In this document: piece after piece, positions 1,303 to 3,676 of the stretch
Numbering within the stretch: position 1 is the first letter of the stretch
Layout of the letters: each line of letters starts with the position of its first letter
Assembly (NCBI GenBank): GCA_049582805.1
Contig: JBAUUR010000012.1
Span: forward strand, 244 to 64,243
Source of the DNA: Gallionellaceae bacterium
GTDB taxonomy: Bacteria > Pseudomonadota > Gammaproteobacteria > Burkholderiales > Gallionellaceae
DNA length: 64,000 nt
Reading direction: 5' to 3'
Program-made: the position numbers and the translations under genes
Notes under the pieces: generated by a model
Seen by the model: the letters and a program-made list of their open reading frames with translations, nothing else
Told to the model about the DNA's origin: nothing
Databases searched by the model: none

Positions 1303-2211
1303 TTAGCTCCTCGATTTCATATTTGATTTGATTTTTCGAATAACGTTTTTGTAGTAGATGCTCTTATCTTCGTTTGGTCTATCACATGCCTGAACTAATA
1401 CATTATTCGCCCGCAGAAATCTTAGCTTCGTTCGGTCCAAATCTTCTCGCTGCTTAGGACAGTAGTAGTAAATCTTATTTTGGATATTCAGCTCGCTTCT
1501 TTTGATAGCGGCGCGCGCCCGAAAGGTCAATAACCACCATAAATGAATTTCAACGAAATCCAGCCCCAAGCCTACTATATGGACATCATGTGTAAAAAAC
1601 ACATCTAACCAACTCTCGATTTCATTTGGGTTGTTACTTCTTAATTTCTTGGTTATTGGGTCAGGACGGAAGTCTTTGTATGAATCGCCTGTTCCAGACA
1701 CCACATAGTTACGCATAGCCTGCAAGTAACCGGAGTAATGCTCATATCCGAGAGCAATTGAGTTTGGTGTGTGTGCATCACCGTGGATATGCCAGAACCG
1801 AACATTTTTAGCCTTGTAATGCCTAAAGATGCTGTATCGAGTCTCAGATACCCTGCCTTCGTTTTTAAGTTTGGGTGGCGTTTTTTTTAATGCCTGCTCT
1901 AATGTGAATTCGTAATTTGTGGTTAATACCTCTTTAATTCCAAGATTCAACAAATCAGTATGTATTTTGTTTGGTCTTAGCCCTTGTACTTTATTCCCAA
2001 TAAATCGTTTAATATCATTCTCTGATTTCGTGCCATGAGTTTCTGCGTAAATACATATTTCCTCATAGAACAAAGGAAACTGCTCTCGCAAATCATTTAT
2101 CTTATTTTTTGCCCCTACATCTTTTACCAAATCCTTAAGTAGCTGCGCCCAATCGTAACCGGGACTTAGTGAATTAATATCATTGCCGATCAAGAGCGCA
2201 TTCTTATTCAT
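1303..2211 (-). CDS. SIR2-like (SIR2_2/ThsA-type Rossmann fold) protein, 302 aa, with no recognisable sensor domain
   Basis: Motifs seen: N-terminal ALLIGNDINS, VLTTNYEF (Asn99), RFWHIHGD (His141/143), and the distal block VHIVGLGLDFVEIHLWWLL. These resemble the GAGxS / TTNYD / HG / (F,I)GYSLxD landmarks of SIR2_2. The region is AT-rich; spot counts of 60-nt lines give about 30 % G+C. Confidence 0.55.
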   Translation of the reverse strand: MNKNALLIGNDINSLSPGYDWAQLLKDLVKDVGAKNKINDLREQFPLFYEEICIYAETHGTKSENDIKRFIGNKVQGLRPNKIHTDLLNLGIKEVLTTNYEFTLEQALKKTPPKLKNEGRVSETRYSIFRHYKAKNVRFWHIHGDAHTPNSIALGYEHYSGYLQAMRNYVVSGTGDSYKDFRPDPITKKLRSNNPNEIESWLDVFFTHDVHIVGLGLDFVEIHLWWLLTFRARAAIKRSELNIQNKIYYYCPKQREDLDRTKLRFLRANNVLVQACDRPNEDKSIYYKNVIRKIKSNMKSRS

Positions 2212-2242
2212 AATCCAGCCAACTTTCTAAATTATTTTGATT

Positions 2243-3676
2243 CTAAAGTTTGCTTGCTGAACGTCGCTTTGAGCCATCGATGAACACGATTTCGGATGTC
2301 GGCTCGCCCCGTGTAGCCTGCTCATTTTTGGCCTTGAGCAAATCTTGATCTTTCTTACCCATCCCACCAACATTGATGACAACATAAACGCCCTTCGATG
2401 TTTTTTCGGATTTCTTGTAAGCCTCGAGTTGCTTCTCATAACCAGCAACAACTTTAGGACTATCAGAGAGCTTGATTTCAACCATGATCTTAGCCTTGGC
2501 ACCTACAGAAAATTTGAAATCAACTACACCAGTCCCAGTGTCCATCTCTGGACTTACATCTAGATTATTCGCCTCGCAATAACTATAAGCTACCGCAAAG
2601 AATAAACGTTGAGCAGATTTCTCTGGCCGCCTCTTCACACCTTGCCACAGTTCTTTCCATAGCCCTTTATCTTCAACCAAGAAGCAAAACTGGTTCACAA
2701 TTTTCAAAACAATTTCGTAAACATCATCTATTGATGCTGCTGCACCTAGCATCAACGTTAAAGGCTCGTCGCGCGCGGCAGAGGTAAGTAAGTCTCGCCA
2801 CTTCAACAAGCCTTGAGGATCTTTCTCAAAGTCATAACTGGTCGGTATGGCTTCATGAATAGACTGCATCAGCGCTTCAAATGCATCTTTGCTTGCCAGC
2901 ACCGATCTCCTAATTTCACTTTTTTGTCGCCTGCTTTTGGCCTCCCAAATAGCACCGATCAACCGATTTGTCGTTGCTCGTAGCAGCGCATTCTTACGTG
3001 CCGCCTCACACACACTATCCCAATCTTGAGCAAGGGGTAATTCCCTAAGCACATCTTTAGGCAAGAGGATAATTGGGGTACGGCGAGTAGCCGTCGGATT
3101 TACTGGGAGATGAATAGATTGTGTGCCAAATTGGAACAGCTCTGTTGGCACATCAAGTGAATTAAGCACTCTCGTATTAAATTCAAACAAATCAGAAAGA
3201 ATAATATTTGTTGTCATATCGCTAATCAAATCAGGCCCAACACCCTCCTCAAGCAATGGGAGAGCAACAAACAAATCAGGATCAACAACCCCCAGATCAA
3301 CGATTTCTTTAGCAGTGGTCAGGATTCGGCTAGATAATTCTGGACCAAAGGCACTCCCTCGTATCGAGGCAGCACTGTAGCCCAAGCAAGTCCCGGGTAC
3401 TTCTGAAAAATGAAGCCTACGTTGCGCCTCACGCCAAGCAACATCACCTATACGCGTAGATGCTTTTAGAAGCTTGATTATCTCTGCAAAATAATTACGA
3501 AATGATTTTGTTCCCTTTCGAATCTCGGGGTGCTTACTAACACCCAGAAGAAGAGGGTCAATAAATAATTTCACGTCGACATTCAGCGTTGGATCAAGAA
3601 CGCCAAGTCCATCCAGTACTGACTCGTGTACACCGAAGTGTTCTGAAAATTGGATGGGATTACGTATTTTACCCAT
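2243..3676 (-). CDS. Hypothetical 477-aa protein with an unrecognised N-terminal region and a PD-(D/E)xK (restriction-endonuclease-like) C-terminal core
   Basis: C-terminal pattern: ...RLFFAVAYSYCE(368)...GVVD(386)FKFSVGAKAKIMVE(400)IK(402)LS...YEKQLEAYKK...GVYVVINVG. This fits helix-E / strand-D / strand-ExK / Q-helix. The gene starts 27 nt downstream of the hsdS stop, and its own stop lies 31 nt upstream of the SIR2-like gene start. AT-rich. Confidence 0.45.
   Translation of the reverse strand: MGKIRNPIQFSEHFGVHESVLDGLGVLDPTLNVDVKLFIDPLLLGVSKHPEIRKGTKSFRNYFAEIIKLLKASTRIGDVAWREAQRRLHFSEVPGTCLGYSAASIRGSAFGPELSSRILTTAKEIVDLGVVDPDLFVALPLLEEGVGPDLISDMTTNIILSDLFEFNTRVLNSLDVPTELFQFGTQSIHLPVNPTATRRTPIILLPKDVLRELPLAQDWDSVCEAARKNALLRATTNRLIGAIWEAKSRRQKSEIRRSVLASKDAFEALMQSIHEAIPTSYDFEKDPQGLLKWRDLLTSAARDEPLTLMLGAAASIDDVYEIVLKIVNQFCFLVEDKGLWKELWQGVKRRPEKSAQRLFFAVAYSYCEANNLDVSPEMDTGTGVVDFKFSVGAKAKIMVEIKLSDSPKVVAGYEKQLEAYKKSEKTSKGVYVVINVGGMGKKDQDLLKAKNEQATRGEPTSEIVFIDGSKRRSASKL

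Novelty: I do not recall this pairing among named SIR2 systems (Thoeris, DSR1/DSR2, SIR2-HerA, SIR2-pAgo, AVAST type 5).

Hypothesis: the large protein senses infection and/or cleaves DNA, and the SIR2 protein depletes NAD+.
How to check it: Run HHpred and Foldseek on AlphaFold models of both proteins. Run DefenseFinder and PADLOC on the locus. Search genomes for homologue pairs and test conserved adjacency and enrichment near defence genes. Clone 1140-3700 with its native upstream region into E. coli, challenge with a phage panel and measure NAD+. Make point mutants N99A, H141A/H143A and D386A/E400A/K402A.
What would refute it: Profile or structure searches place the proteins in non-SIR2 and non-nuclease families, or in an already named system. 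Homologues are not genomically linked elsewhere. There is no phage protection or NAD+ effect on heterologous expression.
Basis: partly seen in the sequence, partly recalled or inferred. Interest (0 to 1): 0.85.

Follow-up and report, generated by a model that had tools for sequence, protein, structure and literature searches.

Two AT-rich genes, here called A and B, lie within a type I restriction-modification (R-M) operon of a Gallionellaceae bacterium, and their position raises the question whether they work together. Based on the sequence alone, an initial annotation had proposed that the pair forms a single anti-phage system, in which a nuclease-like protein (A) senses infection, cleaves DNA or does both, while a SIR2-like protein (B) depletes NAD+. 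We analysed this locus within a stretch of 64,000 nucleotides (the window; contig JBAUUR010000012.1), and compared both genes with their homologues and with known defence systems.

Gene order and base composition of the operon

As listed in Table 1, the open reading frames (ORFs) of A and B have exactly the lengths, shared orientation and short spacers that had been annotated. The two genes are compositionally foreign and are wedged into the type I R-M operon. The GC content is 0.446 for A and 0.391 for B, compared to 0.546 in hsdS, 0.593 in hsdR and 0.571 over the entire window, and the GC content at third codon positions is 0.39-0.41 in A and B versus 0.77 in hsdR. Among 309 equal-sized sliding windows, the A-B segment had the lowest GC content (42% versus a median of 58%), in line with the annotated impression of horizontal acquisition.

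Table 1. Features of the operon, with positions in the 64,000-nucleotide window.
Feature	Position	Strand	Description
XRE-ImmA gene	1-1137	minus	RosmerTA antitoxin RmrA-like, CapP-like; runs off the window edge; putative third, separate cassette
Gene B	1303-2211	minus	302 aa; predicted bare SIR2_2/SIRim domain
A-B spacer	2212-2242	not assigned	31 nt; junction of two separately inherited cassettes
Gene A	2243-3676	minus	477 aa
Gene A, C-terminal core	2243-2641	minus	aa 346-477 and stop codon; predicted PD-(D/E)xK nuclease-like core (motifs and predicted topology)
Gene A, N-terminal region	2642-3676	minus	aa 1-345; DUF8370 by order of precomputed Pfam hits
hsdS-A spacer	3677-3703		27 nt
hsdS	3704-5077	minus	specificity subunit, 457 aa; Pfam Methylase_S 1e-33, PADLOC Specificity_I 6e-90
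hsdR	5074-7986	minus	type I restriction subunit, 970 aa; Pfam EcoEI_R_C 1e-42, ResIII 3e-38, HSDR_N
Small gene 5' of hsdR	8168-8524	minus	ORF read as MazG-like from its sequence; no PADLOC match

The backbone of the operon has close counterparts elsewhere. Using blastn, hsdR was 75-81% identical at the nucleotide level to the hsdR genes of three related operons (L161, L165 and L083), and the central conserved region of hsdS (4276-4618) was 87-90% identical to its counterpart in related operons. No hsdM gene was found within the window, and the Logan contigs that match the exact B and HsdS proteins are short, extending 146 nt past its left edge. Repeats at the flanks, and promoter- or terminator-like signals, were no better than chance as possible marks of the cassettes. 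Since the gaps of 27 and 31 nt contain no terminator-like site, A and B may be transcribed by read-through from the hsd promoter.

The XRE/ImmA gene that had been annotated after the pair is indeed present, 165 nt downstream of B and on the same strand, but in this sequence it is not intact: a frameshift near 970-978, at a run of A residues, separates the HTH part (922-1137) from the HEXXH peptidase part, which lies in another frame. The identical frameshift is present in a Logan contig (L172). The reconstructed protein matches the models of RmrA (7e-18) and capP (3e-7), and beyond the window edge the stop codon of ImmA overlaps with the start of another ORF.

Families and predicted folds of A and B

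The family of A is large, comprising about 900-3300 clusters at 50% identity; we found 3291 representatives, nearly all of them full length at 465-490 aa. With this number of relatives for A, and 751 relatives for B at E <= 1e-3, both can be regarded as real genes. Homologues of A bear the Pfam domains DUF8370 (PF28123) and DUF8371 (PF28130). A itself gave no Pfam match, and it matches phrog_30194, a family without assigned function, over its full length in PHROGs. A was absent from phage genomes, and B was seen among them only in one bacterial contig and one fragment.

The N-terminal region of A is mostly helical and contains invariant residues that include D34, F38, P41, G99, Y100, G111, E143 and the stretch G147-D153. 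The annotation had recognised nothing in this part of the protein, and this view held: a Foldseek search with the model of A against the PDB and BFVD gave no match below E 1e-3, and searches of PDB sequences with A alone and with an A profile returned nothing. The PADLOC model PDC-M36A matches amino acids 25-216 of A (5e-10).

For the C-terminal part, an alignment of 34 homologues showed that E352, E377, D386, E400, K402, Q416 and Y420 are invariant. The proposed restriction-endonuclease-like core is thus upheld with respect to D386, E400 and K402, but not with respect to E368, which is variable with lysine as consensus; on the N-terminal side of D386, the acidic residues that never vary are E352 and E377. 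In the model, the C-terminus follows an alpha-beta-beta-beta-alpha-beta order (helix 352-369, strands 375-379, 387-391 and 395-403, helix 409-423, strand 427-435), so that the D...(D/E)xK motif formed by D386, E400 and K402 falls on strands 387-391 and 395-403, which are flanked by helices. PDDEXK_9 was the top sub-threshold match in five of ten diverse A homologues (9e-5 to 0.055), and many nucleases of the PD-(D/E)xK superfamily were among the weak Foldseek matches of the A model (E 0.019 or worse). Other weak profile matches were to PDC-M15A (1.8e-3) and the C-terminus of EruA (7e-4). Together, the invariant motifs, the predicted topology and the sub-threshold profile matches indicate that A ends in a PD-(D/E)xK nuclease-like core.

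In this respect A resembles Shedu (SduA), which likewise consists of one polypeptide with a family-specific N-terminal region preceding a C-terminal PD-(D/E)xK core, and, like other single-protein PD-(D/E)xK defence nucleases, A is a stand-alone gene found in variable contexts rich in mobile genetic elements (MGEs). It is not a Shedu protein by Pfam, since it lacks a match to SduA_C/DUF4263, and SduA_C was seen only in genes that neighbour some A homologues. Assignment to PDC-M36 also fails, as the PDC-M36A match is confined to the part of A given above, and the two paralogous partner genes of that cassette (FAM_01399>>FAM_00303>>FAM_00303) are absent here.

B scored 34.3 bits against Pfam SIR2_2 (cut-off 24.5, E 3e-8) and matched the PADLOC ThsA model (1e-11, covering positions 24-184 of 242). 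In the comparison with the ThsA structure 6lhx (4e-5), N99 and H143 of B align with N112 and H152 of ThsA. Across 36 B homologues, N99 and H141 do not vary, and at least 90% of the sequences retain H143. The residues that had been singled out in the annotation are all present, namely G9, N10, N13, N99, H141 and H143 in B, and D386, E400, K402, Q416 and Y420 in A. The N-terminal motif of B reads GN(D/G)INN, whereas sirtuins and ThsA have GAGxS at this site. The structural model of B (pLDDT 89.6) matched ThsA (2e-10), KomC (4e-9) and DSR2 (1.5e-8) in Foldseek with a probability of 1.00 and TM scores of 0.55-0.62, at only 14-18% sequence identity to solved SIR2 structures. The modelled fold places B with the immune (SIRim) branch of SIR2, and its sequence lacks zinc-ribbon CxxC pairs. 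The annotated bare SIR2_2/ThsA-type domain was therefore recovered by profile, residue alignment and predicted fold alike, making B a candidate NAD+ hydrolase.

B has the SIRim-type Rossmann fold in common with ThsA, DSR2 and KomC (Foldseek 2e-10 to 1e-7). A single domain of around 300 aa is a feature shared with KomC and AbiH, and B is also found as MGE cargo. In contrast to ThsA and DSR2, it carries no SLOG, Macro or DSR2 C-terminal sensor, and, unlike Kongming and Thoeris, it has no KomB/HAM1 or TIR partner nearby. Thoeris does not fit, because B consists of the SIR2 domain only, without a fused SLOG or Macro domain or an adjacent gene for a TIR-domain ThsB. Nor does Kongming, as the neighbours of B are A and XRE-ImmA, and HAM1 and deaminase families do not recur among the 122 genes that neighbour B homologues. 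The Abi protein AbiH is SIR2-like and stands alone (PMC13064643; bioRxiv 10.1101/2024.09.18.613514), but B scores 19.8 bits against a Pfam cut-off of 30.9, and PADLOC gave no AbiH match; a precomputed PF14253 match is present in a few B homologues. In PADLOC 2.0, NCBIfam 20.0, Pfam and PHROGs, A and B gave only weak or partial matches to named systems, in agreement with the earlier view that the pair belongs to none.

Linkage of A and B and the contents of related operons

The proposal of a single module predicts that homologues of A and B occur together. This was not the case. In a tblastn search with B, no B homologue was found at any of 80 genome loci from many phyla that encode A homologues. 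From the B side, an hmmsearch with the A profile over the genes upstream of B identified an A-family protein in one of 80 loci, which are metagenome contigs, often short and with crude ORF calling. In this single case (L105), a distant A-like gene (23% identity, PDC-M36A-like) precedes a B homologue by 67 nt. The two share one direction and stand isolated between genes on the opposite strand; the nearest relatives of that B homologue (51-56% identity) have other genes upstream.

Neither family has a conserved neighbour. The most frequent neighbour family of A was present in at most 7 of 80 loci, and the top Pfam family among 148 immediate neighbours was seen four times. Among the 122 immediate neighbours of B, HsdM was found nine times and DEAD/HamB-type helicases five times, any other family occurring no more than twice; Peptidase_M78/XRE did not recur.

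Close relatives of A and B are also found without the partner, in operons that carry other genes between hsdS and hsdM, although these contexts are not fully independent samples, since the relatives share an orthologous operon backbone. An A protein with 87% identity lies in the order hsdR-hsdS-A-128aa-DUF900-192aa-236aa-hsdM, and one with 85% identity in the order hsdR-hsdS-A-107aa-420aa-AbiEi-AbiEii-hsdM. B homologues were found in the orders hsdS-PDC-S39-B-hsdM (77% identity), hsdS-HamA-HamB-B-hsdM (69%), hsdS-DUF3800-B-hsdM (58%) and hsdS-ABC-3C triad-B-hsdM (56%). Operons with 75-81% identical hsdR thus differ in what they carry in this interval.

The boundaries of the exchanged pieces could be located by blastn. 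Homology to two operons with A and without B (L161 and L165) ends at 2243 and 2250, and homology to three loci with B and without A (L081, L082 and L168) covers only 1285-2205. These breakpoints coincide with ORF ends, inside the 31-nt spacer between A and B. A and B therefore arrived and assort independently, and most likely act independently.

Defence genes embedded in a type I R-M operon are an arrangement of a known kind, and the PDC candidates were defined in that way (bioRxiv 10.1101/2024.01.29.577857; PMC11411939). PrrC in EcoprrI, TgvAB on VPI-2 of Vibrio cholerae and the PDC candidates (Payne et al. 2024) are likewise foreign genes co-oriented between hsd genes, and there, too, the contents of the slot vary among related operons and include several known defence systems (PMC11411939; bioRxiv 10.1101/2024.01.29.577857). 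A and B differ from PrrC, TgvAB and every PDC model, B matching none of the latter, and TgvAB is a conserved pair, which A and B are not.

Considering these data, we regard the region as a cargo slot of the type I R-M operon, with A and B as separate passengers that most likely function independently; we put the probability of this reading at roughly 0.7. The backbone order would be hsdR, hsdS, cargo and hsdM, with hsdR as the first backbone gene, hsdS as the left-hand anchor of the slot and hsdM just past the left edge of the window. The interval between hsdS and hsdM in related operons holds interchangeable cassettes, several of which are known defence modules, and the window would carry three of them: A, B and the frameshifted RosmerTA-like XRE-ImmA gene. 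By analogy with Shedu, A may be a stand-alone nuclease in which the N-terminal region gates the active site formed by D386, E400 and K402. B, by analogy with AbiH, ThsA and DSR2, may be an abortive-infection effector that consumes NAD+ via N99 and H143.

Possible modes of action

The structurally solved SIR2 defence enzymes closest to B each depend on a fused sensor domain or a partner (KomB in the case of KomC). As a bare SIR2 domain with no obvious sensor, B alone may therefore be incomplete. One solution, which we consider rather unlikely, is that B acts as a guard like PrrC, an effector found nearly always within type I R-M loci (bioRxiv 10.1101/2024.01.29.577857). HsdM/HsdS would keep B silent, and a phage anti-restriction protein that disables the enzyme would release the NADase. 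HsdM is the commonest immediate neighbour of B, and in seven of ten loci with a B protein of at least 55% identity (window included) B is followed by hsdM at a distance of 3-50 nt, whereas its upstream neighbour varies. However, given that hsdR is 75-81% identical among these operons, the adjacency may reflect one inherited insertion, and in the window a further gene stands between B and the presumed hsdM. Moreover, most B homologues of 50% identity or less have no R-M genes nearby, and just 11 of 80 loci contain any hsd gene. In one locus (L176), B comes after HamAB and R-M is absent, and in Salmonella B sits in an integrative and conjugative element (ICE). A broader variant, to which we assign a similarly low likelihood, is that bare SIR2 proteins of the B type are sensor-less NADase effectors licensed in trans by whatever lies next to them, either the R-M complex, as in the PrrC-like guard, or an upstream cassette such as HamAB, ABC-3C or the A nuclease.

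The original two-gene proposal is now very improbable and largely refuted by the comparative data. Adjacency, shared orientation, the short spacer and the similarly low GC content of A and B are consistent with it, as are the missing sensor domain of B and the L105 pair. Against it stand the near-absence of co-occurrence from either side, the close relatives without a partner (85-87% identity for A, 69-77% for B), the varied upstream genes around the L105 relatives and the homology breakpoints inside the spacer. In addition, PDC-M36, the PADLOC candidate nearest to A, combines its A gene with two genes from a different family, and no PDC-M36 model matches B. The annotation had itself named missing linkage elsewhere as grounds for giving up the module, and this is what was found.

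Less probable still is that one or both genes have no role in defence, being instead cargo of a selfish or housekeeping kind, such as a nuclease for DNA repair or recombination and an NAD-dependent enzyme that modifies proteins. Many distant homologues of A and of B do sit among housekeeping genes with ordinary metabolic functions, and literature searches yielded no papers on DUF8370/DUF8371 or PDC-M36. However, A and B lie inside R-M operons together with Hachiman, AbiE, ABC-3C, HerA, McrBC and toxin-antitoxin (TA) modules, both genes are found on plasmids or an ICE, and the SIRim-type fold of B without zinc-ribbon CxxC pairs argues against this reading. Around A homologues we found integrases, TA pairs, Shedu, R-M and AbiE, and B was found next to PDC-S28 in an ICE. 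A MazG-like gene, confirmed by Pfam in one locus (3.8e-15, L064), recurs beside an SLFN-type helicase near A homologues.

The least probable reading takes B as a toxin that, in a pair resembling RosmerTA or CapH/CapP, is neutralised or repressed by the adjacent XRE-ImmA protein, for which the nearby fused HTH and Zn-peptidase gene with its RmrA and capP matches, and a locus where HTH_3 and Peptidase_M78 genes precede a 61% identical B homologue (L177), would speak, but this gene is frameshifted while B is intact, Peptidase_M78 is absent from the recurrent neighbours of B, B matches no RmrT model, and the ORF past the window edge is the likelier partner.

In conclusion, A and B do not make up the proposed SIR2-plus-nuclease system and should not be carried forward as one unit; they are two uncharacterised single-gene candidates, probably independent of each other. 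The locus neatly illustrates how the hsdS-hsdM interval serves as a cassette slot, with junctions at ORF ends. A represents a large family of uniform architecture, and for its N-terminal region of approximately 345 aa no fold relative is known. B, a minimal SIR2 protein, poses the question how a sensor-less NADase stays silent. If B is indeed licensed in trans, the hsdM-proximal SIR2 would be the constant part of a modular arrangement in which variable sensors share one effector.

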